DNA of 64,000 bases. Source: an uncultured Eubacteriales bacterium (lineage in GTDB: Bacteria; Bacillota; Clostridia; Oscillospirales; Ruminococcaceae). The notes under the pieces are model-generated. The model searched no databases, was not told where the DNA came from, and saw only the letters and a list, made by a program, of their open reading frames with translations. Where the stretch lies: contig OMXI01000004.1 in the NCBI GenBank assembly GCA_900314975.1, positions 5,125 through 69,124 of the forward strand. The letters are read 5' to 3'. Positions 1,423 through 64,000 of this stretch are shown in pieces; within the stretch, counting starts at the first letter, position 1, and every line of letters starts with the position of its first letter. A program made the translations under genes and the position numbers.

Positions 1423-1460
1423 GTTTTTGTGAATTTATTATTAAAACGGGAGGGAACTCA

Positions 1461-4400
1461 ATGGGAAACAGCATTTCCATAACAGCCAATCTTACGCAGA
1501 AAATAAACTTTGCATTCGTGCAGAACTATGTCCCCGTGGTAAGAAATGTGCTGCTGAAAAACAATACAAGCGAAACTATCAGCGACATCACCCTCAAAAT
1601 AGCGTTTGAACCGCAGTTTGCCAAGCCGTTTGAACAGCGCATAGCGGCTCTTGACCCCGAGCGCACCGCGGAGATATCGCCCGTAGAGCTTTCGGTCAGC
1701 GCGGAGTATCTGTACTCAATCACCGAAAAGGTGGTCGCCGACGTTACGTTCAGTATAGAAAAAGACGGCGAAACGATAGAAAGCGTCAGCGGCAATGCTG
1801 AGCTTTTGCCCGCTAATCATTGGATGGGCGTGGGCTGCGTTCCCGAAATGATAAGCGCTTATGTAATGCCCAATCTTCCCGAGGTGAGCGCAGTCGTCAG
1901 CAAGGCGGCAGCTTTTCTTCAAAAATGGACTGGCAGCCCGAACTTTGACGGTTATCAGAGCAAGAACCCCAATGTTGTTAAAAATCAGGCTGCGGCTATC
2001 TATGCAGCGCTGCAAGCCGAAAATATCGCCTATGTTATGCCGCCTGCCAGCTTTGAAAAGCAGGGACAGCGTGTGCGCCTGCCGCACGATGTGCTCACAT
2101 CAAAAAGCGGCACCTGTATTGACCTTGCGGTGCTGTATGCCTCCTGCCTTGAGGCAGCGGGCTTGAACGCACTTATTCTTTTCACCGAGAGCCACGCCTT
2201 TGCGGGCGTGTGGCTTGAAGACCAGAACTTTGCCAACTGCACCGAAGACGATGCAAGTCTTATTTCAAAGCGTATGGCAAAGGGTATCGACCAGATATGC
2301 CTTGTCGAGTGTACAGCGTTCGTTGCAGGCAAGTCGGTCAATTTCGACGATGCAAAAGCTGCCGCCGAGGCAAGAATACATAAGCCCGAGGAGTTCGAGC
2401 TTGCGGTGGATATCTCGCGCTGCCGCGGTAACCTTCTTCGCCCTATGCCCGTGCAGACGCAGGGTCAGACCTTTGCTGCCGATTTCGGCAAGCGCAGCTC
2501 AAAGGATCTGACAGCCGCGCCCGAGCAGATAAACGCAAGCCTTTCGGGCAGGGTCACCGACCAGACCGAGCAGGTGACGCGCCAGACCCTGTGGGAGAGA
2601 AAGCTGCTTGATTTGAGCCTGCGCAATTCGCTGCTCAATTTCAGAGCAACAGGCTCTACCGTTCAGTTTATCGCGCCCGATCTTGCAAAGCTTGAAGATG
2701 CGGTCAGCGAAGGCAGCGATATGAAGATACTGCCTGTCCCCGACGATATGTCCATTACCGCGGCAGACAGTAAGATGTTTGAAAACCACAATGCCAATGC
2801 CGACCAGCTTACCGCTATCGCACAGAGCGAGTTTGAAAAGAACCGTCTGCGCTCGTTCTTAAAGGATACCGAGCTTGAAAAGGTGATGAAAAAGCTGCAC
2901 CGTCAGGCGAAGGTGAGCCTTGAGGAAAACGGCGCAAATACGCTTTATCTCGCGCTGGGCTTCTTGAAATGGTACGAAACGGACAAGAGTGAGCAGGAAC
3001 GCTATGCACCGCTTGTGCTCGTGCCTGTGGATATAGTTAAAAAGATACAGGAAAGGTGCTATGTTCTGCGTGTGCGTGACGAGGAAACGCAGATGAATAT
3101 CACCCTGCTTGAAATGCTGCGTCAGGATTTCGGCATAACCATAAACGGTCTTGACCCGCTGCCCGAGGACGAAAGCGGCGTAGACCTTCCGCTTGTTTTC
3201 AATACCGTGCGCCAAGGCGTAATGGCTCAAAAGCGCTGGGACGTTGTGGAGAACGCCTTCCTCGGTCAGTTCTCGTTCAGCAGATTTATAATGTGGAACG
3301 ACATCCGTAATAGAAGCGACGAACTGCGGCAAAACAAGGTAGTTGCAAGCCTTATCAGCGGCAAGCTCGAATGGGAAAGCGACTTTGCCGACATCACTCC
3401 ACAGCAGCTTGACGAGCAGATAAAGCCCGCGGATATGGCTGTCCCGATGAGCGCGGATTCCTCGCAGCTTGCAGCGATCTATCTTGCCTCAAAGGGCGAG
3501 AGCTTCGTGCTGCACGGTCCTCCGGGAACGGGCAAATCGCAGACCATAACCAACCTTATCGCAAACGCGCTTTACAACGGCAAGTCGGTGCTTTTTGTCG
3601 CTGAAAAAATGGCTGCGCTGTCTGTCGTACAAAAGCGCCTTGCAAAGATAGGGCTTGACCCGTTCTGCCTTGAACTGCACTCAAACAAAGCGCAAAAAAG
3701 GGAAGTGCTGTCGCAGCTTGAAAAGACCTTTGAGGTAGGTCATATCAAAGCACCCGCAGAGTACGAGGCACAGGCAAAAAGAGTACACGAGCTGCGCCGC
3801 CGCCTCAACGATATAATCACCGAGCTGCATAAGCCGCGAAACTGCGGTATGAGTATGTATCAGAGCGTTGTCAGCTACGAAAAATACAAGCAGTACAAGG
3901 GCGCTGTTAATGTCGATACCGACTTTGCAAACACCTGTGATGCTGCAAAGCTTGAACAGGTGCGCGATGCGCTCGGCTCTGTGTCGGTGTGCGGCAAGGA
4001 AATAGGCGGACTTTCGGATTCAAAGCTAAAATACTACAAAAATGCCGAGTATTCCGTTGAGATAAGAAATGCCTTTGAGACCGCCGTAAAGTACGCATCT
4101 TCGCGCGCTGGCGAGGCAAAGCCCGCGTTTGAACAGCTCTGCTCGCTTATCGGCGTGCAGCCTGTGGGAACAAGAAAAAACATCACTGCAGTCGGCGAGT
4201 TCGCTCAGACGTTAAGCGCTGCGGGCGAGTTCCTGCCTGCAGTCCTTAATGACCGCGCAGGTCAGTTCGATGCCGAGTGTGCAGCGTTTATCGACGCAAT
4301 AAACGGCTATAAAAACACCAAAGCGCAGATAAGCGTATCCTTTGAGGACAGCGTTTTCGGCTTTGACAGCGAAAGTGCAATGCTCGAATGGAAACGTTCC

Positions 4401-33836: not shown

Positions 33837-36800
33837 ATGGAAAACGCAAAAACGGTTCTTATCGTTGACGATGCCTTTATCAACCGTGCCTTACTGAAAA
33901 AGCTGCTTTCCGACCAGTATAATCTCATCGAGGCGGAAAACGGCAAAATAGCTATGGATATCCTCAATGGCAGCACGACAGTTTCGTGCGTGCTGCTTGA
34001 CCTTGAAATGCCTGTTATGGACGGATTTGAGGTGCTTGCAAGGATGCGGGTAAACCCCAAGTTCAATAAGATACCTATCGTAGTGACAACAGGCGGAGAG
34101 GATGCGGATAACGAGATAAAGGCACTCTCTTACGGCGCGTGGGATTTCATAAAGAAACCGTTTGTGCCGCAGGTGCTGCGTTTCCGCATAAAGAACGCTA
34201 TCGAAAGAAGCCAGTTCGCCGCTTTCGAGCAGCTCAAATACGTTGCGGAATTCGATACCCTCACCGACATCTTCAACAGGGACAAGTTCTATTCCGAGAC
34301 CCAAAGGCTTATAAGCGAACACCCTGATAAGCGATTTGCGATAATAAGACTTGATATAAACCATTTCAGCCTTATCAACTCGTTCTTTGGAATGGACGAG
34401 GGCAACTCGCTGCTCAAATATATTGCAAAGCATCTGCGCGTTAATACCGCAGACTTCATGGGCAGTGCCTTCGGACGTATGGAGGCTGATATTTTCGGCA
34501 TCTGCGTGCCTTTTTCGGACAAGCAGACTATAGAGCATTTTGTTATGCGAAGCATGAATGCGCTTCAGAATTTCTCCAGCGCTTACTATATCGTGCCCTG
34601 CTTTGGCATCTATATCACGGGCGAGGAGGATATTCCTGTCTCGATTATGTTTGACCGAGCAACGCTTGCGGCAAAGCACTGCAAGGGCAACTATGTCAAC
34701 TACTTTGAGTATTATAACGACGATATGCGCCTGCGTATCGAAAAAGAGCAGGAGATAGTCAACGATATGAACTATGCCCTGCAGGATAATCAGTTCACTA
34801 TCTACGTCCAGCCCAAGTACAACGTTATGACCAATACCCCCGCAGGCGGCGAGGTGCTGGTAAGGTGGATACACCCAAAGAAAGGCATGATACCTCCGGG
34901 ACTGTTCATACCGCTGTTTGAGAAAAACGGCTTCGTTGTTAAGCTCGACGCGTATGTGTGGGAGGAAGCCTGCAAGGTGCTCAAGGGCTGGCTCAACGAG
35001 GGCAAAAAGCCAAATCCGCTTTCGGTCAACGTATCGCGCGTTAATATCTATAACCCGCACTTTGTCGATAACATCATAAAGCTTGTCGACAGGTATCAGG
35101 TGCCGCATAACCTGTTTAATATCGAGCTTACCGAGAGTGCGTATACCGATAACCCTGATATCCTTGTAAAGACGATATACAGGCTGCAAAAGGAAGGCTT
35201 CTCAATAATGATGGACGACTTCGGCAGCGGCTATTCGTCACTTTCCATGCTCAAAAATATCCCCGTAGATATATTGAAAATCGATATGAACTTTTTTGTT
35301 GATGCCAACAAAAAGAGCAGGTGCGAAAGCATAGTCGCATCTATCGTGCGTATGAGCAAGTGGCTCAACATACCCGTTATCGCAGAGGGCGTTGAAACCG
35401 CCGAACTTGTAGGTTTTCTGCGCGAGATAGGCTGCGACTATATACAGGGCTACTACTATGCTAAACCGATGTGTATAAAGGACTACGAGCGCTATGCCTT
35501 CACACCAGACAGCAGCATAAACAGTATGCTCGGCAGCGAGGGCGACGAGGTAATGACCCATATCGACGAGGTGCTCGGCTTTGCGGATAATACCCAGCCC
35601 GTTGCAATAATCGAATGTGATGCGCATATGCCCGAGGACGTGGAGATAATCCGCGTGAACGATGCGTTCTTTGAGCTGCTCAATTCACCCACGCGCGTGC
35701 TTTATAAGTACAATCCGCTTGATATCGTCTACGAGCGCGACAGGTGGAAGATAGTTGAATCACTGCGTGAAACTATCGAAACAAAAGCATCGGCAGAGTG
35801 TGAGTACAGCCGCTATATCGCCTTCAGCAACAGCTATAAGAGTATCCACGCAAAGTTTGAGTATATCGATATGATAGGCAATAAGTGTATCCTGCTCGCA
35901 CGGCTTGAGGATATAACCGTCGAGCGCGAGTTTGAAAAGAAGCTCAAAAAGCTGCGCCAGTCTATGCACAATCAGGCAGGCGTTACCAGCCGTATGCTGA
36001 TAATTGACGATCTGGAGATAAACCGCGAAACGCTGTCCTCTTTCTTTGAGAACAGATTTCGTATCTTCACCGCCGAAAACGGCAAGAAGGCGCTTGAACT
36101 TTTGCAGGAAAACAGCAATATGGATATCATCCTGCTTGACCTCAATATGCCCGAAATGAACGGCGAGGAGTTCCTTAAAGCGAAAAACGCAGACCCCGTG
36201 CTGCGCAATATTCCCGTTGTCATAACCACAGCCGAGGATTCACCGCGGCAGCAGCAGGCAATGATAAACCTCAATGTCAATGACTATATCGTAAGCCCGT
36301 TCGTGCGCGAAACTATGGTTCGCAGGGTCGATAACGTGCTTGAATCCGACAGGTATTTCCGCGATGTGATAAATAAGCACGCAGCAAACACGGGCATAAT
36401 CCACGACTATACCACAGGTATCTATAACAGAGCAACAGGCGAAAAGCTCATCAACAGTATGATGCAGCTCAAAGCGGGCTTGTATGCATTCCTTATTATC
36501 GATATCGACCATTTCAGAAAGATAAACAAGGAAAGCGGAACACAAACCGCAGACCGAATGCTCTTTGAGCTTGCGCAGATGCTTACAGCTATGTTCAGAA
36601 CCAACGACGTCGTTGCAAGAATAGGCGATGACGAGATATGCGTGCTTATGAGCAATATAGCAAACGAAGAGTCTGTTGACGAAAAGTGCCACCAGATAAC
36701 AGAAAAAGTTTCAGCGCTTGACCTTAAGCTGACCGAAAGCAGCTGCCTGTCGTGTACTATCGGCGCAGTGGTTACAGATAAGAACGAAAGCTTTGACAGT

Positions 36801-36881
36801 ATGCTCACGCAGGCAAATGACGAACTTGAAAAAGCACGCAGCGAGGGAGCAAGCTGGTCTGTAAAAGTTATCGGGGACTGA
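33837..36881 (+). CDS. Dual-receiver c-di-GMP signalling protein: REC - degenerate GGDEF - EAL - linker/PAS-like - REC - degenerate GGDEF
   Basis: REC1 (VLIVDD...LLDLEMPVMDG...KP) and REC2 (MLIIDD...LLDLNMPEMNG). EAL motifs look intact: EVLVRW, ELTES, DDFGSGYSSL, KIDMNF, AEGVET, QGYYYAKP. The GGDEF signatures are altered: GRMEADIFGI (~34473-34499) and RIGDDEICVL (~36618-36641). Confidence 0.85.
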   Translation: MENAKTVLIVDDAFINRALLKKLLSDQYNLIEAENGKIAMDILNGSTTVSCVLLDLEMPVMDGFEVLARMRVNPKFNKIPIVVTTGGEDADNEIKALSYGAWDFIKKPFVPQVLRFRIKNAIERSQFAAFEQLKYVAEFDTLTDIFNRDKFYSETQRLISEHPDKRFAIIRLDINHFSLINSFFGMDEGNSLLKYIAKHLRVNTADFMGSAFGRMEADIFGICVPFSDKQTIEHFVMRSMNALQNFSSAYYIVPCFGIYITGEEDIPVSIMFDRATLAAKHCKGNYVNYFEYYNDDMRLRIEKEQEIVNDMNYALQDNQFTIYVQPKYNVMTNTPAGGEVLVRWIHPKKGMIPPGLFIPLFEKNGFVVKLDAYVWEEACKVLKGWLNEGKKPNPLSVNVSRVNIYNPHFVDNIIKLVDRYQVPHNLFNIELTESAYTDNPDILVKTIYRLQKEGFSIMMDDFGSGYSSLSMLKNIPVDILKIDMNFFVDANKKSRCESIVASIVRMSKWLNIPVIAEGVETAELVGFLREIGCDYIQGYYYAKPMCIKDYERYAFTPDSSINSMLGSEGDEVMTHIDEVLGFADNTQPVAIIECDAHMPEDVEIIRVNDAFFELLNSPTRVLYKYNPLDIVYERDRWKIVESLRETIETKASAECEYSRYIAFSNSYKSIHAKFEYIDMIGNKCILLARLEDITVEREFEKKLKKLRQSMHNQAGVTSRMLIIDDLEINRETLSSFFENRFRIFTAENGKKALELLQENSNMDIILLDLNMPEMNGEEFLKAKNADPVLRNIPVVITTAEDSPRQQQAMINLNVNDYIVSPFVRETMVRRVDNVLESDRYFRDVINKHAANTGIIHDYTTGIYNRATGEKLINSMMQLKAGLYAFLIIDIDHFRKINKESGTQTADRMLFELAQMLTAMFRTNDVVARIGDDEICVLMSNIANEESVDEKCHQITEKVSALDLKLTESSCLSCTIGAVVTDKNESFDSMLTQANDELEKARSEGASWSVKVIGD

Positions 36882-52538: not shown

Positions 52539-53297
52539 ATGAAAAATGATCTGATGCGCTATGTACTCAAAAAATCGACCATTGTACAGAGTTTTATCGC
52601 CGTTTGTATCGCCGCAGTAATAAGCCTTGGCGTTATCATATTCTCGGCAGTATTCCTCGATCCGCCCGCTAAAGAAAAGGCTTTGAACAACATAACTACC
52701 GTGGTCCTCGCATTCTGGATGTTCATAAGCGCGGTAACTGTTTCGAGTGAATGCGCAAATATGAGCATCTGCCTCAACCGTTCAAGAAGATCGGCGCTCA
52801 AAACCGTGTTTGCATCACTGCTGATAAGCACAGTCGTGTTCGCCGCTGTAAACTTCGCAGCAGAGGCACTGCTTTCGGGCGTTTGCCCCGGCCTGGGACT
52901 TAATTATTCTTTCAGCCCGCTTATCAAAATCTTTGGCATAGTAAAGACAGGCACCGATATCGCAGGTCTGGCACTCGCATTCGCATTCCAGCTTCTCGTC
53001 TACTACTGCATCGGCATCGCAGGCGCACTCTTTATGACCGTGTGCTTAAAGTGCGGCAAATGGGCTTGGGTAATATTCTGGTTAGCGTATATGTCGCTGT
53101 TCATGTTCGGAAGGACCATCGTAAGCGGCTTGAAAAGCGCAGCAAGCAGTATGTTCTCAAGCACGGGCGCATTCGTACTGTGCCTGCTGGCAGTAACATC
53201 AGTCGTTTGTACGATCGTCCAGATCATCCTCGCAAGGAAGCTGGAGCTGAACAAAAACGCTTTGATGTTCGGCTATAAAAGAACTACCCAGCAATAA
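52539..53297 (+). CDS. Multi-TM membrane protein (second putative permease component)
   Basis: Roughly 6 hydrophobic segments. AAGGGGGA RBS. Last gene before the strong terminator. Confidence 0.6.
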   Translation: MKNDLMRYVLKKSTIVQSFIAVCIAAVISLGVIIFSAVFLDPPAKEKALNNITTVVLAFWMFISAVTVSSECANMSICLNRSRRSALKTVFASLLISTVVFAAVNFAAEALLSGVCPGLGLNYSFSPLIKIFGIVKTGTDIAGLALAFAFQLLVYYCIGIAGALFMTVCLKCGKWAWVIFWLAYMSLFMFGRTIVSGLKSAASSMFSSTGAFVLCLLAVTSVVCTIVQIILARKLELNKNALMFGYKRTTQQ

Positions 53298-53332
53298 AGA
53301 GCGTTATACTATCCCGCGCTCTTTAAATAATG

Positions 53333-53369
53333 ATCGGCATCTGCCCTTTGGCGGATGTCGATTTTTTTA
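53333..53369 (+). terminator. Rho-independent terminator marking the core/island boundary
   Basis: ATCGGCATC-12 nt loop-GATGTCGAT is followed by a T7 run. A second hairpin, AAAGAGCG...CGCTCTTT, sits just upstream at ~53297-53324. Confidence 0.7.
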
Positions 53370-53529
53370 TCGCTGCGCAGCATTTTCAGCAGGTTATCAT
53401 CAGCTTGTCATACTAATATAGTATAATATAAATCAACAATCAGACACAGCAGCTTCAAATCTGTTAAAAGTGTGAAAGAAATTCATAAATCGCACAATCA
53501 TCTTTGTGCATTTTTGTCAAATATGCTTA

Positions 53530-53558
53530 TTGCCAAATAAGGACTTTTATTGTATAAT
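53530..53558 (+). promoter_or_regulatory. Sigma-A type promoter of the AT-rich island operon
   Basis: TTGCCA (53530-53535), a 17-nt spacer, then TATAAT (53553-53558) preceded by TG. It lies about 94 nt upstream of ATG 53652. Confidence 0.5.
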
Positions 53559-53651
53559 ATAAGAGAGTAAATATGCCTACAAGGGGCAAGTGTACCCTCT
53601 TGACGAAAATGTCTAAATTATTAACATAAAAATGAAAGCGAGGTGAGAGTA

Positions 53652-54734
53652 ATGAGTGAAAGGTCTGTAAATGAAAACAATAAGCTGTGGGAAGCAGCCG
53701 AAAGAGTAGCCGAAAAGGTGGTGGCTGCAAAAAAGGCAGAAAGCGAAGAAGAACGCCGCAAGCAGAAAAAGCGTATCGTCAAGCTGGTACTTCTGATGAC
53801 GCTCATTGCCCTCATTATAGTTTTCGCATCTATTGCTTGGTTTGCCCAAAACAAAGCAGTGTCGGCTAACACAATGGCTGTATCAGCTGCACCATCACCA
53901 TTTGAACTTGAGACAGTCGGTTATGCAAATAATGACTATATTGATTTATTCAATATGGCTGATCCGGAGTATGAAGAAGGCGAACAGCAGGGTTCTACAA
54001 GTGCTTATCGTACAGGAACTGCCCAGCAAATAAGATGGCGCCTTGACAGCGATGACGATGATTCATACACCGAAGGATTCAGACCGGGAGCTTCGGGTTC
54101 GCTGACATTCAAGGTCGTCCCCAAGGGCGTGGACTCTGTCACTGTAAATTGCAAGTTCAATATAAGGGCTTTTGTTGGTAATTATAACGATACTACTGGT
54201 GATTTGGAAAGCATAGATGAAGTTACATCAGCAACGACGGATAACGATCAGAAAGATGCTTGTAATTATATAAACGGACACATTCTTTTCTTTCAGAATA
54301 AAACAACGGTAAGCGGGAATGACATTTATTCCGGATACATTGGTACTAATGGGTTGAATGTAACGGCTACAGGCGGAAACACTCAAACGGTTACAGTTTA
54401 CTGGAAATGGGTAAATACTTTTGACCAGATGATCTTAAAGTCAACAGACAGCTATAATGATTACCCTCTTATTGCAGATTCAGGCGGAACTGCACAGCAG
54501 GATAGAGATGCACTGATCGCATATATCAAAGCAAATTATTCAAAGATCTTTTCTGGATTGAGCAGTGAAGATCAAACTTCAATTTCAAGTATAACATATG
54601 ATAATTTAAAGAATTCTGCACTGCTTGGTGCACTATGTGACGCATATAATGCTGCCGATCAGATAATCGGTGTAAATCTGGATTATTTCATGCTGGAACT
54701 TACGGCTGATGTCGGAACATCTTCTAATAATTAA
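53652..54734 (+). CDS. Island protein A: charged cytoplasmic N-tail, one TM segment, SipW/TasA-signal-like AWFAQN motif, beta-rich ectodomain
   Basis: AGGTGA RBS and ATG 53652. The N-terminus ends ...KKRIVKLVLLMTLIALIIVFASIAWFAQNKAVSANTMAVSA. The ectodomain has GFRPGASGSLTFKVVPKG and TVTVYWKWVNTF, reminiscent of TasA/camelysin-type proteins (PGD...F.V.N.G and W.W motifs). This is similarity by eye only. Confidence 0.6.
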   Translation: MSERSVNENNKLWEAAERVAEKVVAAKKAESEEERRKQKKRIVKLVLLMTLIALIIVFASIAWFAQNKAVSANTMAVSAAPSPFELETVGYANNDYIDLFNMADPEYEEGEQQGSTSAYRTGTAQQIRWRLDSDDDDSYTEGFRPGASGSLTFKVVPKGVDSVTVNCKFNIRAFVGNYNDTTGDLESIDEVTSATTDNDQKDACNYINGHILFFQNKTTVSGNDIYSGYIGTNGLNVTATGGNTQTVTVYWKWVNTFDQMILKSTDSYNDYPLIADSGGTAQQDRDALIAYIKANYSKIFSGLSSEDQTSISSITYDNLKNSALLGALCDAYNAADQIIGVNLDYFMLELTADVGTSSNN

Positions 54735-54767
54735 ATCGAGATAATGATGCGAAAGGAGGGCTGCAGC

Positions 54768-55628
54768 GTGAAAAAGCTTTTTGAAAGAATCAAAAAAATG
54801 TCAAAGCGGAAAAAAGTACAAACTGTTATCGCGCTTGCCCTTACAGTAGCATTGTGTTTTGCTATACCTGCCTTTTCTTGGTTTAACAATCAGAAAAAGA
54901 TAGCAGAAATTGCAAAAATAAAAGCACCTGATGAGTTGTATATCAATGCAGCTCATAAAGAAGATGTTATCAATCTTGATATGTCATCAATAAACGTTTC
55001 CCAGAAAATACCGAATACTAACACACCTATCACATCACAAAGCTTTGTGTTCAGCGTATCAGGCGAATGGGTAAACAGCTTCACACTTCAGATAGAACAC
55101 ACTACAAACAATCCCTACACTTATACGTTTTATGAAGGAGTAATCTACGAATCTGAAAGCGCTATGCGTGCAGCTCACTCCGATTGTGATACAAGAAATG
55201 CCGATGGTTCACTGAAATATGTTGAGTATGTTGCCACGAATGTATATGATAGTGAAGAGATGAGTAAAATAACCACATGGCCAGATGACGGTTTAACAAT
55301 AACGACTGGACAAAGGATTTTCATTTGGATTGGTGATGAAATCAAAAATATGAAAAATCAAACTGGAGGATATCTTAATAAGGCAACAGGACAAAGATAT
55401 TCAGATGGTTCCACCTTGACGCCAAAGTCTTATGAAAGCGGAACAGTAAAGGATAAATATGCCGATCCTGTATACTGGCAGCTTAAGAACATAAAAGGCG
55501 GAGATACAAAAGGACAGCCTTTTTATAAAACATATGTAATTAAAGCAAGTTGGACTGGTATTTCTGATGTAGCAGAGGATTATAACAAAGAAACTGATAT
55601 TTTCTACATTTCAGCTTTTGTAGAGTGA
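54768..55628 (+). CDS. Island protein B: basic N-tail, one TM segment, FSWFNNQ motif, beta-rich ectodomain
   Basis: AAGGAGGG RBS lies 7 nt before GTG 54768; the track's ATG 54744 lacks an RBS. The N-terminus is (M)KKLFERIKKMSKRKKVQTVIALALTVALCFAIPAFSWFNNQKKIAEIAKIKAP. Confidence 0.6.
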   Translation: MKKLFERIKKMSKRKKVQTVIALALTVALCFAIPAFSWFNNQKKIAEIAKIKAPDELYINAAHKEDVINLDMSSINVSQKIPNTNTPITSQSFVFSVSGEWVNSFTLQIEHTTNNPYTYTFYEGVIYESESAMRAAHSDCDTRNADGSLKYVEYVATNVYDSEEMSKITTWPDDGLTITTGQRIFIWIGDEIKNMKNQTGGYLNKATGQRYSDGSTLTPKSYESGTVKDKYADPVYWQLKNIKGGDTKGQPFYKTYVIKASWTGISDVAEDYNKETDIFYISAFVE

Positions 55629-55653
55629 ATACGCAATGACGGGAGTGAGACAG

Positions 55654-56640
55654 ATGCCGAAGAATATAAAAAGTTTTCTCAAAAAGCATATTATTGCAAT
55701 ATGGATAACAGCAGCTGCTCTCACGCTTGTGACACTCGGCGTTATGGCTTCTTACACCAATCAGAGCAATAAGGCAAAAAAAGTAGTTGCTACAGTTGCT
55801 AAAACAGAAATGCAGTTCTCATCGAACTATCTGGATACTACTAATCCGTTCAGAACCATAGTAATAAATGACGGTGATGCTATAAGTGTCGATGTAAGGA
55901 ATTACAGCGGTAATTCAACTACGTGGTATAAATCGGATATCAATTATACTTTTACAGCAGAACTGACAAAAACAGACGGAAGCAGCCTATCAGAAAGTGA
56001 GGCTGCGGAGCTGTTGGGCGACGGAGGCTCGGTTATAATAAAAACTGCAGATGATGAAGGAACTGAGAGTCCTACTCCATTATGCACGCTTACAGCAACA
56101 AACAGGAGTTCTGGCGACATATCACGTTGCTTGACATTTAATTCTTCAGCAACTACATCTGATCATTTCAAGGTTTATTTTTCAAGTCCATCAAGCAAGG
56201 TGTGTGTAAAGATTACAGCAACGCCAAACGTTTCGTATAAAGATTTGGAACTGATCAGCGCCATACTTGCTGTATCAGATAAAAGCAGTGTTCAAAACAA
56301 TGGTTGGACCGGGGAATTCACAGATCCTATGACTAATAAGACTCCATCAGACTATGATGCATATAATTATGCTATTACAGGAAACGGCAATTCAGATTCC
56401 GCTACACTGAGATGGGATTCAAGTAAAATCAGTATTAATAGTCAATATATCAGAGATACATTACATGTAACGACGATAAGTGATATTCCGGGGCGAACAG
56501 GCTGGAAGGAAATAACGTTCTCTCTTGATTCAACCACAAGCAGTGGACGTTATTCGTTCCAAGTGTTTAAGGTTAACGGACAGATTCCTGCAACTTGGAA
56601 TGCACTTAAAGGTTATATAGAATTTGACGATGGTATTTAA
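55654..56640 (+). CDS. Island protein C: basic N-tail, one TM segment, ASYTNQ motif, beta-rich ectodomain
   Basis: GGGAGTG RBS and ATG 55654 (ATG 55636 is also possible). The N-terminus is MPKNIKSFLKKHIIAIWITAAALTLVTLGVMASYTNQSNKAKKVVATV. Confidence 0.6.
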   Translation: MPKNIKSFLKKHIIAIWITAAALTLVTLGVMASYTNQSNKAKKVVATVAKTEMQFSSNYLDTTNPFRTIVINDGDAISVDVRNYSGNSTTWYKSDINYTFTAELTKTDGSSLSESEAAELLGDGGSVIIKTADDEGTESPTPLCTLTATNRSSGDISRCLTFNSSATTSDHFKVYFSSPSSKVCVKITATPNVSYKDLELISAILAVSDKSSVQNNGWTGEFTDPMTNKTPSDYDAYNYAITGNGNSDSATLRWDSSKISINSQYIRDTLHVTTISDIPGRTGWKEITFSLDSTTSSGRYSFQVFKVNGQIPATWNALKGYIEFDDGI

Positions 56641-56675
56641 TTCTCAGTATCATCATTAATTCAGAGGTGAGCAAA

Positions 56676-59600
56676 ATGACAAAAGCAAGAAAGAAAAAAA
56701 ATAGCAGTATTATTTTTAAGCGCGTGATCAGTACTGTCACAGCGTTTACTCTCCTTGCCTGTAGCTTACCTATGTCTGAAATCTCAAGCAAACTTATGTC
56801 TTTGCCGGGAACTATAGTTGCCCAAGCAGATGAATATGGACATAATCCGACCTTGTTTACACCAAACGATGTAATAGAATACTCAAAGGACTATAATGCT
56901 CGTCCCGATTTTCATTATAATGATATAGTAACAATCTCATATAGTGGTTCTGATTCCAGCGTTGCATTTACAGGATTTCAGAGTATTGGCAAAACAAGAG
57001 CTTTTGAAGGAAAATTAATAATAGACACTGTTTCAGATCATTGGCTCAATATTGATGTTCCTATGTTTGAACAAATTGCTGATAATGCAGAGATAGAAAC
57101 AGCATCAGGAAGACAGCTTATTATCAAGCCAACGGCAGACAGCGATGAACCGGTTTTTGCAAAAAAAGTCGTTCACAAGGATGGCAATAATCAAACTGCA
57201 AATTGGAAAGTCGAAATAGGAAATTATAATTCTGAGAATCACAAGCACGGCAGCGTTATAGGTACATTAGATGAAGATGCAAAGGTCTCTTTGTCTGTTG
57301 TTAATGATTACAGTGCTGCAGTTGAAGGCAAGACGAATGCTGGTGTGATATGCGAGACTATGAATGCTGACTCAGCACTTACTGTTACAAGTATAAGCGG
57401 TTCGGATATGACAAGCGTTACTGCTAAAAATGGCAACGCAGGTGGTCTTGTCGGTGAAATGGAAGCAGGCTCTACACTGAATGTAAATGGTGCAAGCAGT
57501 GCCTTTGCTTCTCCTACATCAACAATAACTGCAAAAGGATCAGATCACTATGCAGGCGGCTTGGTTGGTAAGAACTTTCAAGCGACAGTTACAACCAATA
57601 ATGGTTATACTGCAATAAAAAACACCATTTCAGGAACCGCAGGTGCTGGTGGCTTATTTGGATATTATAAACCTATCCTGACGTCGAATACTTTTAGTCT
57701 TGACCTGGATTCTTACACTATTGGAGATTCATCCAAGAAATGCAGTGTTTCGAGCATCGGCGGAGCAGGCGGCTTCTTTGGTGTGCTTGATAATCCACAA
57801 GGCGGAACAATAACTCTCAGCGGTAGTAGTACTAAACCTATCTATGCTAAAGGTGCAGGAAATACCACTGTATTTGGCGGTATAATAGGAACTTACAGGG
57901 CTAACTCTATCGATAATTCACTGTTCATCAATGGAACAAGTTCAAGCAATAAGCTTACAATAAACACTGATAAGTCAAACGATCTTGCATATTATGGCGG
58001 CGTTATCGGAAAGATAGACGGTTCTGTTTTTGCAAGCGTAGAAAGCGTTTCTGTAAATGCTTCAAATGCAGGCGATGAGTTCTTTGGCGGCGCAGTAGCT
58101 TGCGCTGATGACGGATATGTTTATGTCAAGGATTTTGCTCTTACAGCATCCGGCACTCACGGCGGCGGCGTAGTTGGACATTGTGCAAATGGAGTTGTTC
58201 ATCTTGCAGGAGCTACAGATCTTTCAGGTGCAACTTCCGCCACAGAAAGCGCAAAATATGGTCAAATTGTAGGATACAGGGATAGTGCGCTCGTTTTTGC
58301 GGACAGCAGTTGGAATCTGACCAGAAGCAGTTCGTCAAGCAACACCGCCGATGATATTGGAGCATGGGGTGAGGTAGTACGGTTTAAAGATTCTGGTTTT
58401 GTTATCAGTGACGTGCTTGATGCTTACTATATTCCTACAGCCGCATCGCCTAATCACTATGCGACTGTTAAAGCCGCAGCATTTTCAGGCACAAAAATAG
58501 CGCTTTCGGATAAAGCAACATTTGCTAGGGCTGCTCTTAATATGCAGCTTAATAATGGATCTTCAGATAGCACAAAGACCCTCAGATTTGCAGATACAAC
58601 AAATAGCACATACACTGTTCTTAAATCAAAAAGTGTAGCTATGTCAGCTGATATTGATCTTAGCCATACAGGTATGACAGGATTGACAAGAGACAACAAA
58701 TTATCTGAATGGACTGCTGATATAGGACCTGAATACTCCGGTTCAGAATTTGACGGCGGCACTTATACCTTGACACTTGCTATCGGAGAGGGTTATAATG
58801 GCGCAGATACCACTAATATCTCTGATTCAAGCAGCAAAGGTAAAATCTATTGCCATAGATTTAATGGCCTGTTTGGTGAAACTAGTTCTGCTTTTACTGT
58901 AAAGAATGTTACAATAACAGGAAAAGTACATACCTATGATCGAGCTGGTAAGGATGCGATATTTTATGTCGGTACCATAGCAGGTAATGCAGCTGCTGCG
59001 TTTAATGCAACAGGTGTGACTGTTAACAACAGCACAAGCGTAGTTTATGGTACAAACAGCGCAGATGACGAATTATATGTCGGCGGTCTTGTGGGCAAAA
59101 TGTCTGCACCGGGTACTTCAACTATTGGTTCACAAGCTTATGTCGGAACTACAAACAGCACATTCAGTGCTTCGATAACCGGAAATGCTGCAAACGGTAC
59201 GCCCTATATCGGTGGAGTTTCAGGATATGTTGACGGGAACGACGGTGTAGTAAATGTCTATGATGTTAAGATTAGTGGTTCTGTAACTAACAGTGGAACC
59301 AGAAAAGATCAGTATATAGGTGGTCTCTTTGCAAATGCATGGAACTGTACTCTTAATCTTGATGGCGTAGAATTGAATGGATTAACTGTCAAGGGTAAAA
59401 TGAACAGTGATGGTGGAGCCACGATGGGTGGACTGCTTGGATATAACTACCTCAATACTACATCGACATTTGACAATATTAAAGTTTTAAATTGCATTCT
59501 TGATAATGATTCTTCAACAGGAAAAATGGCTGGACTTGTTAATATGGGTTCAGGTTACTGGAAATTCCTAAAAGTTGAAATAGGAGGAGATTCTCCTTCT

Positions 59601-62600
59601 GTTAATGGAATTACACTTGCGGGCAGTTCTGCCGAGTCTTTTGGTATGCTTGTTAACAGAGCATCTTCCGGCGAAAGTGCTATGTATTTGGAGCTCCCAT
59701 CAGGATTCACTTATAAGATTTATAATGTTTCAGGTACTGCTCCTGCGATTTATGATGAGATAGCAGCTAACACAAAACTTGCTGGTTCCATTGAAGAGAA
59801 CGGAAACCCGATTGTGTCAATCAATACGAACGGTACAACAAGATATGGTCCACAGACTGACACAACAGTCCATATGACATCCGGTACCTGCAATACATAT
59901 CAAAATCAGGTCACCGCTACGGGATTCAATAAGTATAATCCCAATTCAAGGTATTATTATAACGTTGATAACTATATTGGGCAATCTAATTCTGGAGCAG
60001 CAGCGCTCTATCTGTGGAGCGTTTATCAGTATGCCCACAGCACTATACAATTAAAGATTGCTGCATCTGCACCATCAGCATCGTTTTCAGGATCACTTGA
60101 CCTTGACGGATACAGCTATTATCCTGTTGATGTTTCTGGTTCTGGAACGGTTAATATTCAAGGCAATGTCAAACTTTATAATGAAAAAATAGAAAATATT
60201 GAAGCTGCTTCTTCGGGCGGCTCTGATAGTTATGCCAGAACAACATTAAAAGATACTACAAATAATACGACAACACAGCATTATCTTATGCACGCAGGTT
60301 TGTTCCGTAATGTTAGCGGTACTGTAAATATAAACGGAGCATTGAGTCTTAACGGAACTGTTCCTCTTATAAATTCTTATTGCGGAGCACTTGTTTGTGG
60401 AACAATAGGTGGAAGTACATCGTCAAATGCAACTGTAACATCTAACAATACAGGTGCAAGTATTTCCCTTGCGGGTATAAAAATACATAATAAGAACAGT
60501 TCATATTCTCCGTTGCTGATAAACAAGGCAAGCACTAATGTTGTCCTTGATATTTATAATGTATCCGCAAGCGGTTATTCATCTAATGATACTATCGCAA
60601 CCAGTCTTCTTGGAAAAGTTGGTTCAGACACTGCGGTGGAAGTAAAAGTTACATTCAATAGTATTGAGCTTGATGCTCGCTCTTCCAATACGCCATCTAC
60701 TCTTGATACTGTATACGGAACAACAAAATCTCTTTTTACAAGAGCAACTCTTCTTGAAAGCCTTGAATATGCTTCTGGTTCGGGTTCATATGGTGTGTAT
60801 AATTATGAGTATAGCGAGGACTGGAATGCTTCACATAGTCATATAGGTGATGTGACATACGGCAAAGAACTTACAAATAACGACAGCAAGAATTATGGAA
60901 AAGAATTCTGGTATTATAATGAAAATCATGCGAGTGTTGATGCGCATTATGTTGATCCATTGAATTATAATACAACAGGAAATGGTATATCAAGTGTCGA
61001 TTTCACAGGTTATATTCCTTATGTTGCAGTTTGGGGCAGTGATATAGGAACATCTACAACAAAACATCAGCTTAACGTCAATCATGCGGCAGCAACGTTT
61101 GGTGGCTGTGGAACATACAACGATCCATACAAGATTACAGACGGCAGTCAGCTTGAGTCGATTGCAAAGATACTGAGCGGCGATGATGACAACGGTACGT
61201 TTTGGCTTTATTATCCGGATGATACTGATCAATGGTGTGACAACAAAGATCAACACAAAGCATATAGATATTATTCAGCTCAATTTACAACAAAGGAAGG
61301 TACATCAGTTACTCCAACTGAAGGCACTTATTATCAGGTCATACCTTTTACCGAAAGCGGTATCACAAATTATTATGTAACAAATGCAAGCAAAGACAAT
61401 ACCCTTTCTCCGAGCGCAGTTCGTAAACATCTTGCAGGAGCATATTATTATCTTGACAAAAATATTATCATTAGTGCAAGTTCCGGTTATGCTGGTCTTG
61501 GAAGTAATTCAGACAGTACATATGCTTTTCATGGAGTAATTGCCGGAAATGATAAAACCATAACCAACCAGTCGGGTTCTCCGTTGATATATGCAAGCAA
61601 CGGTTGCGTTGTCAGAAATCTCAAGGTTGTTGCTGAGAATAACAGTATTGCACTTACTGGTACTGCAAGCAACGGTTTTCAAACATCCGGAGGCTGCGGC
61701 GCATATGGTGCTGTTATCGGCAGAGTATTTGGTGGCGATAACATTCTTGACAAAGTTAAGGTCGATGTCAGCAGTGCAGTGGTAACTCCAACAACGGTGA
61801 CACCTGTAGGCGGATACATTGGTGTTATTGTTGAAGGTGGCGTATTCTTCCGCAATATGGATGATACTAATGTGCCTGTTGCAGATAAAACCGGGTTTGC
61901 TACAACAACAGTAAATAATGGGACAACAGTCGCAACAATCTATAACGAGGACAGCAAGCAGTATTTGTATTGCAATCCGCTAATCGGCAGAGTCATCAAC
62001 GGATTTGCAGTTACAGAGGCAAGCGCTTATGCTCCTTATGAGGATGGATATAGATATTTCGGCAGCGGAACGACTCCCGTATCTGGGAACGCTGTAACGC
62101 TAAAAAATGGCAACAAGAACTATTCGATCACAGATATTGCACCAAATGATAAGCTCACAGTTTCAGCAAAATCATTCACCGTATCATCTTCACAGCAATT
62201 CTTTGTGATGTCGCTCATCATTAACAGCGGTATAGGGACAAATGGTACGAATGTTGTTGGTTATTATGGTTCTAATCAGATGACGCGCCGTGCTGATTAT
62301 TCTGATGTCGGAACAGACGTTAAGAAAACTGACGATGGATATGCAAGCACTAATGCATGGAAGGATTATCAGAAAGCAAAGGATGATGACACTGCCAATC
62401 CATATCTGTTAGACAAGTACGCAACAGGTACTTACGCAAAACAACTTGGAAGCGAGTCGGGATTCACTATTAATTTGAATGCTGATATTATTTTACCTGA
62501 TGGGTATAAAGGTATTGGAAATATTTATGGAACGGAAGCAATTATAAATAATAATAAAGCAAGAATTCTAAATGATAACCTTCAATTAGCATTATCAAAT

Positions 62601-64000
62601 TTCAATGGTAATGACCATACTATATCTCAAAACACCACCTATTATAGCTATACTAAAGGGAATGATAATTATTTACCATATACACATTATTCCTATGTCG
62701 ATAAAGGGGTTACAAAGTATAATAATAATGTTCACGGCTTGGGGTTATTCAATTATGTTAAAAATGCAACATATAAAGAATGTATCCTGACAGGAAATGT
62801 AAAAACTCGTCAGTATAACACCGATGGTACGGCTCCTAATTACATTCGATCTGATGATTTTACTGCTTTAGCTGCTGGAATGTTTATCGGTACACTTAAT
62901 ATGGGCAACAACGCAACAATCACCGATGTGTACCTCCAAAACACCTATACCGAAGGCTCACGTGAAGCGGCTGGCTTAATAGGATTTTTGATTAATGGAG
63001 GTAAGAAAATATCTATTTCCAATACAATTAGTAAATCAACACAATCGAATAAAATTCGTGTAAGTGCTGGAACGAGTGCTGCTGGATTGATTGCAAGACA
63101 AGGTCTTATAGATTCTGGACCAAGTGGTGGTGTTGGAGAAATTGAAATTAAACTTAATGGGCACCAATTTGATTACGTAAGTATTATTTCGAGATATGAT
63201 GGAACATTCGAAAAAGATAAATGGAATTCCGATTGGTCTTTAGGAGTTGGTGGAATTGTTGGTATAGCCAGAGCAGGTACAAACGATATCTCAGCTACAA
63301 ATAACCATATTACAATTGAAGGTGTCAATATTGGCAAGGCTGTTGGTGATAATGCAAGAGTAGTGGCATGTGAGTATATCGACTCAAGTGGCCAGACAGT
63401 GAGAGGTAATGTATATACTGGTGGATTGGTAGGAGTAGCAAATAAAGCACCAATAGATGCAACCGACTGTAATATTTATAATGTTACGGTTAGTTCTGCA
63501 AATTATTCTGGAGGTGTTCTTGGCTGGGGAGGTACTTGGTCAAATATTAATTTGGACAATTTCACAATAAAGAATACTCTTAATGGCGATAATGCTGCTA
63601 AGATCATCTCGAACTCAACGGGTAATGCTGGCTGTGTTGTTGGTTTCTGCAAAGGCGGAGACGATAAACAAAGCATGGGTAGTCTAAAGATTAATGATAG
63701 TATAATTGAAGGGTATACTGTTGAGGCAGGATATGCTGGCTCTGCATTAGGGGACTGGAATTCAAGTAAACCATTTTCAATCAATAATTCTATTGTTAAT
63801 AACTGTACTATCAATTATTATGCCGCTGGAGGAGGTCTTGCAGGACAGCTTAAGCAAAGCTTAAATGGATATAATGTCAGAGTAAGTGAAATAACTTTTA
63901 CGAAGAAAGGAGATGCTGAGACTACCTATAGAGGATATATTGCTGGTAAGCGTGATGGCGGAACTATTAAAATTGTTGGCTTCCAAAGAACAGGAACAAT
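56676..64000 (+). CDS. Giant secreted GLUG-motif beta-helix surface protein, 5' part (>2,441 codons, open at the window end)
   Basis: Not in the ORF track because no stop is reached. GAGGTGA RBS and ATG 56676. I translated the frame by hand to 63998 without meeting a stop; the four listed plus-strand ORFs in this span all share one other frame. Signal peptide MTKARKKKNSSIIFKRVISTVTAFTLLACS...IVAQA|DE. More than 20 GLUG-like units (NAGGLVGE, YAGGLVGK, GAGGLFGY, GAGGFFGV, YYGGVIGK, YVGGLVGK, YIGGVSGY, TMGGLLGY, YTGGLVGV, YSGGVLGW, AAGGGLAGQ). FGGCGTYNDPYKITDGSQLESI is a module start typical of GLUG proteins. Confidence 0.85.
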   Translation, partial: MTKARKKKNSSIIFKRVISTVTAFTLLACSLPMSEISSKLMSLPGTIVAQADEYGHNPTLFTPNDVIEYSKDYNARPDFHYNDIVTISYSGSDSSVAFTGFQSIGKTRAFEGKLIIDTVSDHWLNIDVPMFEQIADNAEIETASGRQLIIKPTADSDEPVFAKKVVHKDGNNQTANWKVEIGNYNSENHKHGSVIGTLDEDAKVSLSVVNDYSAAVEGKTNAGVICETMNADSALTVTSISGSDMTSVTAKNGNAGGLVGEMEAGSTLNVNGASSAFASPTSTITAKGSDHYAGGLVGKNFQATVTTNNGYTAIKNTISGTAGAGGLFGYYKPILTSNTFSLDLDSYTIGDSSKKCSVSSIGGAGGFFGVLDNPQGGTITLSGSSTKPIYAKGAGNTTVFGGIIGTYRANSIDNSLFINGTSSSNKLTINTDKSNDLAYYGGVIGKIDGSVFASVESVSVNASNAGDEFFGGAVACADDGYVYVKDFALTASGTHGGGVVGHCANGVVHLAGATDLSGATSATESAKYGQIVGYRDSALVFADSSWNLTRSSSSSNTADDIGAWGEVVRFKDSGFVISDVLDAYYIPTAASPNHYATVKAAAFSGTKIALSDKATFARAALNMQLNNGSSDSTKTLRFADTTNSTYTVLKSKSVAMSADIDLSHTGMTGLTRDNKLSEWTADIGPEYSGSEFDGGTYTLTLAIGEGYNGADTTNISDSSSKGKIYCHRFNGLFGETSSAFTVKNVTITGKVHTYDRAGKDAIFYVGTIAGNAAAAFNATGVTVNNSTSVVYGTNSADDELYVGGLVGKMSAPGTSTIGSQAYVGTTNSTFSASITGNAANGTPYIGGVSGYVDGNDGVVNVYDVKISGSVTNSGTRKDQYIGGLFANAWNCTLNLDGVELNGLTVKGKMNSDGGATMGGLLGYNYLNTTSTFDNIKVLNCILDNDSSTGKMAGLVNMGSGYWKFLKVEIGGDSPSVNGITLAGSSAESFGMLVNRASSGESAMYLELPSGFTYKIYNVSGTAPAIYDEIAANTKLAGSIEENGNPIVSINTNGTTRYGPQTDTTVHMTSGTCNTYQNQVTATGFNKYNPNSRYYYNVDNYIGQSNSGAAALYLWSVYQYAHSTIQLKIAASAPSASFSGSLDLDGYSYYPVDVSGSGTVNIQGNVKLYNEKIENIEAASSGGSDSYARTTLKDTTNNTTTQHYLMHAGLFRNVSGTVNINGALSLNGTVPLINSYCGALVCGTIGGSTSSNATVTSNNTGASISLAGIKIHNKNSSYSPLLINKASTNVVLDIYNVSASGYSSNDTIATSLLGKVGSDTAVEVKVTFNSIELDARSSNTPSTLDTVYGTTKSLFTRATLLESLEYASGSGSYGVYNYEYSEDWNASHSHIGDVTYGKELTNNDSKNYGKEFWYYNENHASVDAHYVDPLNYNTTGNGISSVDFTGYIPYVAVWGSDIGTSTTKHQLNVNHAAATFGGCGTYNDPYKITDGSQLESIAKILSGDDDNGTFWLYYPDDTDQWCDNKDQHKAYRYYSAQFTTKEGTSVTPTEGTYYQVIPFTESGITNYYVTNASKDNTLSPSAVRKHLAGAYYYLDKNIIISASSGYAGLGSNSDSTYAFHGVIAGNDKTITNQSGSPLIYASNGCVVRNLKVVAENNSIALTGTASNGFQTSGGCGAYGAVIGRVFGGDNILDKVKVDVSSAVVTPTTVTPVGGYIGVIVEGGVFFRNMDDTNVPVADKTGFATTTVNNGTTVATIYNEDSKQYLYCNPLIGRVINGFAVTEASAYAPYEDGYRYFGSGTTPVSGNAVTLKNGNKNYSITDIAPNDKLTVSAKSFTVSSSQQFFVMSLIINSGIGTNGTNVVGYYGSNQMTRRADYSDVGTDVKKTDDGYASTNAWKDYQKAKDDDTANPYLLDKYATGTYAKQLGSESGFTINLNADIILPDGYKGIGNIYGTEAIINNNKARILNDNLQLALSNFNGNDHTISQNTTYYSYTKGNDNYLPYTHYSYVDKGVTKYNNNVHGLGLFNYVKNATYKECILTGNVKTRQYNTDGTAPNYIRSDDFTALAAGMFIGTLNMGNNATITDVYLQNTYTEGSREAAGLIGFLINGGKKISISNTISKSTQSNKIRVSAGTSAAGLIARQGLIDSGPSGGVGEIEIKLNGHQFDYVSIISRYDGTFEKDKWNSDWSLGVGGIVGIARAGTNDISATNNHITIEGVNIGKAVGDNARVVACEYIDSSGQTVRGNVYTGGLVGVANKAPIDATDCNIYNVTVSSANYSGGVLGWGGTWSNINLDNFTIKNTLNGDNAAKIISNSTGNAGCVVGFCKGGDDKQSMGSLKINDSIIEGYTVEAGYAGSALGDWNSSKPFSINNSIVNNCTINYYAAGGGLAGQLKQSLNGYNVRVSEITFTKKGDAETTYRGYIAGKRDGGTIKIVGFQRTGT

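Follow-up and report, generated by a model that had tools for sequence, protein, structure and literature searches.

What do three small genes and one giant gene, all AT-rich and set at the end of an otherwise ordinary stretch of chromosome, make together, and do they belong together at all? The stretch in question is 64,000 nucleotides long (contig OMXI01000004.1 of assembly GCA_900314975.1, positions 5,125 to 69,124, from an uncultured Eubacteriales bacterium of the Ruminococcaceae) and is called the window here; its last part holds an operon of genes A, B and C and a giant gene that runs past the window. We conceive that this operon is the cargo module of a surface-fibre or adhesin system, which would depend on a signal peptidase of the SipW type, known from the tapA-sipW-tasA operon of Bacillus subtilis, and would be linked to CoCoPALM, a system named in a survey of McrBC. 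Proteins A, B and C would be cleaved and would form a fibre or stalk for the giant protein. To this reading, which is drawn from sequence comparison, we give a probability of roughly 0.55.

The four genes travel together far beyond the window. More than 3,600 protein clusters make up the giant family, unnamed and nearly all 3,200–3,900 amino acids (aa) long. In the genome search for this family, the motif GCGTYNDPY served as the pattern. Giant homologues are present in at least 168 species-representative genomes, one genome per species being scanned, and the hosts include Ruminococcus albus, R. flavefaciens, Eubacterium xylanophilum, E. ruminantium, Huintestinicola, Acetatifactor and many metagenome-assembled genomes of rumen and gut Oscillospiraceae and Lachnospiraceae. 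Open reading frames (ORFs) were called in 86 related loci and searched with hidden Markov models built from A, B and C, and giants with at least 3.6 kb of upstream DNA were evaluated. A, B and C lie in order, on the same strand and immediately 5′ of the giant in 67 of 70 such loci; of the other three, one has a split gene, one is a second copy that has A alone, and one is arranged divergently. This order persists across Oscillospiraceae and Lachnospiraceae at about 25–35% identity (giants ~30%). By this conservation, A, B, C and the giant are judged to be one conserved functional unit that is unannotated at present. An earlier interpretation of the window from its letters alone (the sequence-only reading) had treated the four genes as one module, as their co-occurrence now confirms. 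It had also described them as same-strand genes with gaps of 33, 25 and 35 nt, and the same gaps result with the start codons of public assemblies.

Some genomes hold two modules, in tandem or divergent (L042, L047, L082, L060, L072). There, a giant tail may be followed by A-B-C-giant, or an extra A may stand with a shorter giant-like ORF of ~1,600 aa. Such duplicates imply several cargo modules per genome.

Proteins A, B and C are three separate orthologous families, each with invariant residues. The A family comprises 1,269 representatives at 50% identity, and 108 homologues of B were found, none of them annotated. The three proteins share a common plan, in which a basic N-terminus and a single transmembrane segment are followed by a conserved site of the small-x-small plus aromatic kind. 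In A, the charged N-terminus and one transmembrane segment lead to the motif S-I-A↓W-F (the arrow marks the putative cut), a beta-sandwich and a helical subdomain. In B, a signal-anchor precedes A-F-S↓W-F and a jelly-roll-like beta-sandwich, and in C, a signal-anchor precedes V-M-A↓S-Y and the ectodomain.

Conservation at this site is strict. Among 72 A homologues, position -3 is T/S in 94%, -1 is A/G/S in 100%, +1 is W in 100% and +2 is F in 97%. Among 72 B homologues, -1 is A/S/G in 100%, followed by W in 100% and F in 96%, and among 74 C homologues, -1 is A/G/S and +2 is Y/F, each in 100%. Judged from these alignments, the site follows the (-3, -1) rule of type I signal peptidases and is succeeded by an invariant aromatic residue, so that [TSVA]-x-[AGS]↓W-F or ↓x-Y of A–C stands in register with T-W-A↓A-F of TasA. 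A signal end like that of SipW substrates, small-x-small plus aromatic as in TasA, is thus found in all three families, at the motif level only.

Beyond this segment the proteins part. The similarity of A, B and p261 (a fourth family with an A/B-like N-terminus, frequently encoded just 5′ of A in other loci) is limited to the first 28–50 aligned positions (BLASTP; hhalign probabilities of 84–97%), in agreement with the sequence-only reading of a shared N-terminal design with divergent ectodomains. The same pattern is known from TasA and TapA: in TasA, the fibre is built through a donor strand made of the residues that follow the SipW cut, and this strand is all that TapA has in common with TasA (PMC9674648). 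The earlier label ‘SipW/TasA-signal-like’ gains strong but indirect support for the N-terminal signal, with its small residues at -3 and -1, its invariant aromatics and SipW genes near about half of the related loci, but not for the TasA family, to which no profile match leads.

A likely peptidase is encoded next to the module elsewhere. About 32 of ~70 related loci carry a partner block at most 10 kb from the module, with genes for a small EAL protein, p237, a signal peptidase, p528, a DUF2357 protein, a second signal peptidase, p144 and p86. The sequence-only reading missed this block because it lies outside the window. When all flanking ORFs were clustered without bias, the recurrent neighbours were p261 (33 loci), p528 (29), SipW (29), DUF2357 (27), the small EAL protein (23), p237 (23) and p144 (15). 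This clustering returned no other recurrent neighbour, with no sortase, glycosyltransferase or S-layer gene and no immunity-like gene downstream. Protein p237 has an N-terminal motif of the same kind as A–C, p144 is a membrane protein, and p86 is a coiled coil.

Both block peptidases pass the archaeal/SipW-type model TIGR02228 (83 and 93 bits; cut-off 51.85), and the B. subtilis SipW model is the first or second best match of both. Protein p528 combines the Walker motifs GISGTGKT (A) and LLDEMN (B) with a transmembrane segment; its profile has a single PDB match, the E. coli McrB GTPase 6hz4, to which it aligns over both Walker motifs and the N..D region, and p528 also matches the PADLOC candidate-defence model PDC-M26A at 1.7e-37. 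The protein adjacent to p528 has the McrC N-terminal domain DUF2357 (PF09823; 36 bits vs cut-off of 23.3), is 660–990 aa long and contains a long E/R/K-rich coiled coil. The DUF2357 proteins examined have no further Pfam domain, and hence no nuclease domain was detected in them.

In eight loci, DUF2357 and a SipW domain occur in a single ORF of about 930–996 aa. The C-terminal ~210 residues are a near-complete SipW model (E about 1e-66 to 1e-79), and the separate second SipW gene is missing there. These fusions imply that the GTPase pair is physically tied to signal-peptide processing. The small EAL protein (~250 aa; L004:21641-22411 and 20 homologues) has LTNFGG in place of DDFGTG and ADGV in place of EGVE, and may be a receptor of cyclic di-GMP (c-di-GMP) rather than a phosphodiesterase.

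Block and module differ in pace. Protein p528 is 71–86% identical among hosts whose giants and A–C share only 25–35% (L004–L085), a gap that fits an intracellular machine with an exposed, diversifying cargo. The cargo module and the block are found in at least three arrangements (block upstream, downstream or divergent), and linkage kept through such rearrangement is good evidence for a shared function of both. In a reciprocal metagenome scan from p528, about half of the lineages whose flanks are long enough have the giant module adjacent. A p528 search on plasmids returned only distant McrB-like relatives in unrelated bacteria.

How does this system compare with known ones? Like the tapA-sipW-tasA operon, the related loci have a dedicated peptidase of the SipW type (endoplasmic reticulum/archaeal type), beta-sandwich bodies, and substrates with unrelated bodies whose likeness is confined to the N-terminal signal and the stretch directly behind the cut. 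Unlike in that operon, there is no detectable sequence homology or significant structural homology to TasA and no peptidase gene in the window, whereas three to five substrate families (220–500 aa), a 3,300-aa partner, an McrB-like GTPase, DUF2357 and EAL belong to this system and are not part of TasA systems.

The nearest experimental analogue is the sipW-bsaA-bsaB-bsaC operon of Clostridium perfringens, in that SipW substrates are combined with a large cargo and a motor. Its fibre-forming SipW substrates polymerise by donor-strand exchange, and the large secreted BsaC (70 kDa) requires an NTPase-driven machine of the pilus type for export (bioRxiv 10.1101/2024.11.04.621531). However, A–C, unlike BsaA and BsaB, are not remote TasA homologues; export there runs through a type IV pilus system, and a McrBC-derived GTPase pair is proposed here; and the giant cargo is about 5 times larger than BsaC, with no von Willebrand factor A or other known domain.

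For the partner block, the closest account is the McrBC survey of Bell et al. (eLife 2024; PMC11090510), where one paragraph names CoCoPALM, predicts a role in pilus assembly and defers the analysis. About half of the related loci have a block of this kind, that is, a McrB-like GTPase with a transmembrane/coiled-coil N-terminus, a coiled-coil McrC-N protein (DUF2357) and proteins of the signal-peptidase family. The survey does not mention A, B, C, the giant, the shared N-terminal motif, the EAL protein or the DUF2357–SipW fusion. None of the three defining components (McrB-like GTPase, DUF2357 protein, signal peptidases) is encoded in the window, and all are present in related loci. The window module is a frequent neighbour of CoCoPALM and not a CoCoPALM locus itself. 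A literature search found no characterisation of A, B, C or the giant, or of CoCoPALM after 2024.

Type IV pili and the pseudopili of type II secretion also consist of small proteins that share an N-terminal hydrophobic helix and a processing site and differ in their beta-rich heads, and they too depend on a membrane peptidase of their own and on a motor at the membrane that is driven by nucleotides, with control by c-di-GMP. The likeness is architectural only, as there is no class III signal (G↓F-x-x-x-E), prepilin peptidase or PilB/PilC homologue here; a regular-expression search for the class III prepilin motif (G↓F/M-x-x-x-E) gave none, and no pilin or PilB/C/D family was matched. Sortase-dependent pili differ by their LPXTG signal, which A, B, C and the giant lack, and no sortase recurs in the flanks. 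Neither a C-terminal LPXTG-like motif nor a C-terminal transmembrane segment was found in any of the four proteins, and lipoprotein motifs are absent from them as well.

In the mechanism that we propose, A, B and C would be inserted in the membrane via Sec, and a dedicated SipW-type peptidase, which this genome would encode outside the 64-kb window, would act at the conserved site and so expose an aromatic N-terminus with a beta-strand-like segment after it. Through these the proteins would join each other by complementation of the donor-strand type, as in TasA/TapA; by this analogy, TasA-like polymerisation of A–C is plausible. A short heteromeric fibre or stalk would result, and it would carry or anchor the separately exported protein of 3,309 residues, rich in beta-helix-like repeats, as the adhesive part at the far end. 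Nucleotide-dependent control or force for processing and assembly would come from the McrBC-derived GTPase pair, and a link to c-di-GMP from the EAL protein.

A wider claim can be made only tentatively, and we would not yet bet on it: that the operon is the structural half of an undescribed class of Gram-positive appendage, widespread in fibre-degrading Ruminococcus and Lachnospiraceae of rumen and gut, with pilin-like subunits A, B, C, p261 and p237 matured by SipW, a McrBC-derived GTPase pair that assembles or gates it, c-di-GMP control, and the giant as its working end.

Several results weigh against the fibre reading. A, B and C have no match in Pfam or NCBIfam at E ≤ 1, TasA/camelysin (Peptidase_M73) included, and the curated NCBIfam models of SipW signals match none of them. 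When five family profiles were aligned with TasA by hhalign, nothing was significant (probability <2%). AlphaFold2 models of A and B, built with 71–72 homologues, are confident (mean predicted local distance difference test of 86.6 for A and 90.8 for B) and have no Foldseek match in the PDB at E ≤ 0.001. In A, a helix at 12–71 is followed by a disordered segment (71–82) and then by the beta-sandwich and helical subdomain; in B, a helix at 21–60 is followed by the jelly-roll-like sandwich. The segment after the putative cleavage site is thus placed in a continued transmembrane helix, not in a strand, in both. Genes for SipW, the McrB-like GTPase and DUF2357 are absent from the window (tblastn), and about half of the related loci lack the block within 10 kb, so that linkage is frequent but not obligatory; the unlinked half implies that a cargo operon can reside apart from the block, as in this window. 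Finally, a human-gut lineage (33 metagenome loci, p528 ~79% identical to the reference; L091-L121, L127, L138, L150, L151, L154, e.g. L093:15095-21564) has the full SipW/McrB-like block, then A, then the giant, with no homologue of B or C. Because this lineage has only A and the giant, B and C are dispensable in some versions.

The best Foldseek matches are generic beta-sandwiches, namely the N-terminal domain of glycoside hydrolase family 123 (GH123), CBM3 and viral jelly rolls. The best match of A is the N-terminal sandwich of a GH123 enzyme (E 3.5e-3), and that of B has an E of 0.08. The TasA fibre 8aur_A ranks 23 for A (E 0.077, template modelling scores of 0.17/0.25) and is not in the top 50 for B. 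PDB sequence searches with single sequences and with profiles of A, B and C (43–45 homologues) returned none, with no TasA chain at E ≤ 10, and A, B, C and the giant had no meaningful match in PADLOC and PHROG. With no match in Pfam, NCBIfam or PDB profile searches and nothing significant in Foldseek, membership of A–C in the TasA family is not supported; A–C may still work like TasA. Nor do the profile searches (A–C) and structure searches (A and B) place any of these proteins in an unrelated known family, a placement that would have told against the sequence-only reading.

The competitor that we take most seriously, and yet hold to be unlikely, is that A–C stay uncleaved as bitopic proteins, with W-F as an interfacial aromatic belt, and form not a fibre but a membrane platform or chaperone complex that receives, folds or anchors the giant. 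The single unbroken helix that AlphaFold2 runs through the motif agrees with this, as do the missing SipW gene in the window and the lack of a fold match of A and B to a known fibre subunit; the giant, moreover, has no anchor of its own (no transmembrane segment, no LPXTG) and so needs a partner to stay on the cell. An aromatic belt, however, does not need the strict small residues at -3 and -1 (A/G/S in 100% at -1 in three families), which are the hallmark of a peptidase site. Nor does it account for dedicated SipW paralogues, two per block and some fused to DUF2357, that co-localise with the module, or for homology confined to the N-terminus across unrelated ectodomains, which is the TasA/TapA pattern. 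The same McrBC-derived block could also be viewed as a device for defence or antagonism, with the giant and A–C as a phage-blocking shield, a decoy or a contact-dependent weapon. Protein p528 is indeed a McrB-family GTPase that matches a candidate-defence model, and its closest described relatives have been predicted to act in restriction (PMC11090510), with a conflict role predicted for the CoCoNuT relatives of the block. The module, which is mobile and mosaic, evolves fast, and its GC content is below that of the host in 54 of 70 loci, which is common for defence islands. We regard a conflict system as improbable nonetheless, since the DUF2357 proteins show no nuclease domain and end in a SipW domain in 8 loci, A–C and the giant match no PADLOC or PHROG family, the giant is conserved over its full length with no variable toxin-like C-terminus and no recurrent immunity-like gene downstream, and the recurrent regulator is a c-di-GMP protein of the EAL type, typical of adhesion and biofilm control.

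Least credible by far is the notion that a horizontally acquired, fast-evolving adhesin gene merely has three unrelated ORFs hitch-hiking beside it, with no functional unit. Foreign codon usage and the lack of an annotated domain in any of the four genes would suit it, but it is already contradicted by the A-B-C-giant order kept at ~25–35% identity in two families of bacteria, by the orthology and invariant residues of each small protein and by the confident folds of A and B. The reading of A–C as cleaved subunits of a fibre or stalk for the giant is the one we carry forward.

The giant protein itself was followed past the window. The sequence-only reading had it longer than 7.3 kb and open at the window edge, and a 100%-identical database protein (P0001) gives the full length of 3,309 aa, with the stop 2.6 kb beyond. 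Its predicted export signal has no aromatic motif of the SipW type, and a Cys in the signal region is not conserved among homologues. A sequence scan found no second transmembrane segment and no LPXTG. There are 16 motifs of the GG[LIV][VIF]G type in three blocks, spaced 26–40 residues within the blocks, and several glycines of block 1 are invariant over 17 giant homologues.

These repeats look like beta-helix rungs. Like proteins of the GLUG family (PF07581), the giant has GG[LIV][VIF]G every 26–40 residues, rich in G, S, T and N, and a G-x-G-T-x-x-D-P-Y motif, but the Pfam GLUG model does not match it even at E ≤ 10. The earlier ‘GLUG’ label is thus not supported as a family assignment and comes down to GGhhG-type motifs seen by eye; ‘GLUG beta-helix’ is a fair by-eye description with membership not demonstrated. 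The giant and its 120 best homologues (the latter by precomputed annotation) have no Pfam domain, and the giant-family profile has no match in the PDB. The family is conserved over its full length. A prophage tail-fibre was considered as well and rejected, as no relative is present in the phage collection.

Directly 3′ of the giant lies a broken regulator of the helix-turn-helix (HTH)-WYL type (199-aa ORF and fragments; L001:20004-20860, 2.6–3.5 kb past the window). Intact 324-aa HTH-WYL homologues adjoin the giant module in five other loci (e.g. L018:18067-19041). Beyond the remnant follows a BspA-type leucine-rich repeat protein, where all available assemblies stop.

The operon coincides with a break in composition. 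GC content (G+C fraction) per 1-kb bin is 0.44–0.56 as far as 53 kb and 0.375–0.433 from 54 kb to the window end, and its mean past the terminator-like hairpin changes from about 0.49 to 0.39. At third codon positions (GC3) it is 0.36 in A, 0.31 in B, 0.33 in C and 0.28 in the giant, vs 0.48–0.68 in all other window ORFs of at least 200 aa (n = 34). On the source contig (L001), GC is back up to 0.47 3′ of the giant gene. Because it recovers directly there, the AT-rich stretch is exactly the four-gene operon (~13 kb). The shift in codon usage and composition is real, sharp and coextensive with the operon.

Here the sequence-only reading fared well. The change after the terminator, which it had taken from spot counts, persists in the 1-kb GC profile and in GC3 of each gene and is sharp at the operon start, and extension of the contig located the giant gene end, the downstream genes and the right-hand GC boundary. 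Its near-consensus promoter is an 11/12 sigma-70 match, ~95 nt 5′ of gene A and the top-scoring site in a scan of 53000–57000; promoter-like counts overall are no higher than in shuffles, so that the site is a consensus match only. It had reported no tRNA, integrase, sortase or signal peptidase in the visible part; no integrase, sortase or signal peptidase was found in the visible part of the operon region, and no tRNA in the window. The hairpin closes the preceding GntR/ATP-binding cassette (ABC) operon and is the left composition boundary. No Rfam family reached its gathering score in the whole window, and the operon leader and four related loci likewise gave no Rfam family, c-di-GMP riboswitches included.

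Was the operon acquired recently? In the closest relative, L007, the module occupies the matching chromosomal site, with the same GntR/ABC operon in front of it. Identities between the window and L007 are 91% for GntR, 85% for the ABC ATPase and 92% for the response regulator, and 85% for A, 90% for B, 56% for C and 56% for the giant. The shared site, together with A and B that match the flanking core genes in conservation, means that inheritance of the module has been vertical since the two lineages parted; C and the giant diverge fast relative to A and B. Other pairs of loci have different mosaics (L060/L064: A 85%; B, C and giant 27–30%), which suggests recombination or cassette exchange between modules. 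Module GC is below that of the flanks in 54/70 loci, with a mean difference of 3.4 points.

The family is found on a mobile element in R. albus 7, where an A-like gene, A, B, C and a giant of 3,425 aa (RUMAL_RS19420-19440), all annotated as hypothetical, lie on pRUMAL02, a conjugative megaplasmid, and are flanked by recombinases of the tyrosine and serine types, a relaxase with MobC, and IS66 elements; module GC is 0.364 vs 0.445 in the flanks. As far as these comparisons indicate, the family is mobile but the window copy is an old resident, with recent acquisition not shown. Of the earlier claim ‘horizontally acquired’, the mobility of the family is borne out by the R. albus 7 megaplasmid, and recent acquisition is weakened by L007, with its same site and 85–90% identity of A and B.

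The remaining window is ordinary chromosome, with mfd/TRCF, a response-regulator-EAL-GGDEF protein and a DUF4011 helicase-nuclease. The first of the latter two (33837-36881, + strand; 1,014 aa) lies 17 kb upstream of the operon and is a possible c-di-GMP input. Other EAL genes are found near the module elsewhere: L007 has a 536-aa EAL-PAS gene (L007:5040-6650) between the ABC operon and gene A, where the window has a promoter-bearing intergenic region of 354 bp (53298-53651) instead, and several R. flavefaciens loci have an EAL gene of ~558 aa divergent from p261. The helicase-nuclease (1413-7268, + strand; 1,951 aa), with a transglutaminase-like N-terminus, DUF4011, an AAA_11/AAA_12 superfamily-1 helicase and a REase_MTES_1575 nuclease, is probably a defence or repair protein unrelated to the operon.

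Table 1 Coordinates of features in the window (plain numbers) and in related loci
Feature	Position	Strand	Description
Intrinsic-terminator-like hairpin and T-run	53332..53369 (hairpin 53332-53363)	+	14-bp stem, 7 GC pairs, then TTTTTAT
Sigma-70-type promoter-like site	53530..53558	+	TTGCCA, 17 nt spacer, TATAAT; 11/12 matches
Gene A	53652-54734	+	360 aa; 363 aa from alternative GTG at 53643
Putative signal-peptidase site of A	53829..53843	+	S63-I64-A65 ↓ W66-F67 (363-aa numbering)
Gene B	54768-55628	+	286 aa; 294 aa from alternative ATG at 54744
Putative signal-peptidase site of B	54870..54884	+	A43-F44-S45 ↓ W46-F47 (294-aa numbering)
Gene C	55654-56640	+	328 aa; 334 aa from alternative ATG at 55636
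Putative signal-peptidase site of C	55741..55755	+	V36-M37-A38 ↓ S39-Y40
Giant gene	56676..64000 (window part)	+	First 2,441 of 3,309 codons; ends ~2.6 kb past window
Predicted export signal of giant	56676..56831	+	Residues 1-52, ...TIVAQA↓DEYG; hydrophobic span 12-37; cleavage site placed by eye
GLUG-like rung block 1	57441..58178	+	8 GGhhG-type motifs, residues 256-501, 26-40 aa spacing
GLUG-like rung block 2	59082..59441	+	GGhhG-type motifs, residues 803-922
GCGTYNDPY motif	61104..61130	+	Residues 1477-1485; among best-conserved stretches of giant family (17-homologue alignment)
GLUG-like rung block 3	63249..63845	+	GGhhG-type motifs, residues 2192-2390
R. albus 7 module (L167)	Plasmid pRUMAL02, NC_014825.1:142625-156981		
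DUF2357–SipW fusions	L011 (e.g. L011:24475-27453), L016, L018, L024, L050, L052, L061, L067		

If the fibre reading is true, a McrBC restriction motor has been re-used to build a cell-surface structure, and a new route of filament assembly in Gram-positive bacteria would stand beside sortase pili, type IV pili and TasA fibres. All components are now ‘hypothetical protein’ with no Pfam family, and to define them would bring an annotation to thousands of database entries. Among the main cellulolytic Ruminococcus (R. albus, R. flavefaciens) and relatives of theirs in the gut, the system is common. How these bacteria attach to plant fibre and to one another is explained only in part by cellulosomes and type IV pili, and an exposed protein of 3,300 residues under c-di-GMP control would be an obvious candidate for this attachment. 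As R. albus 7 is cultivable and carries a plasmid copy of the module, the question is directly testable.

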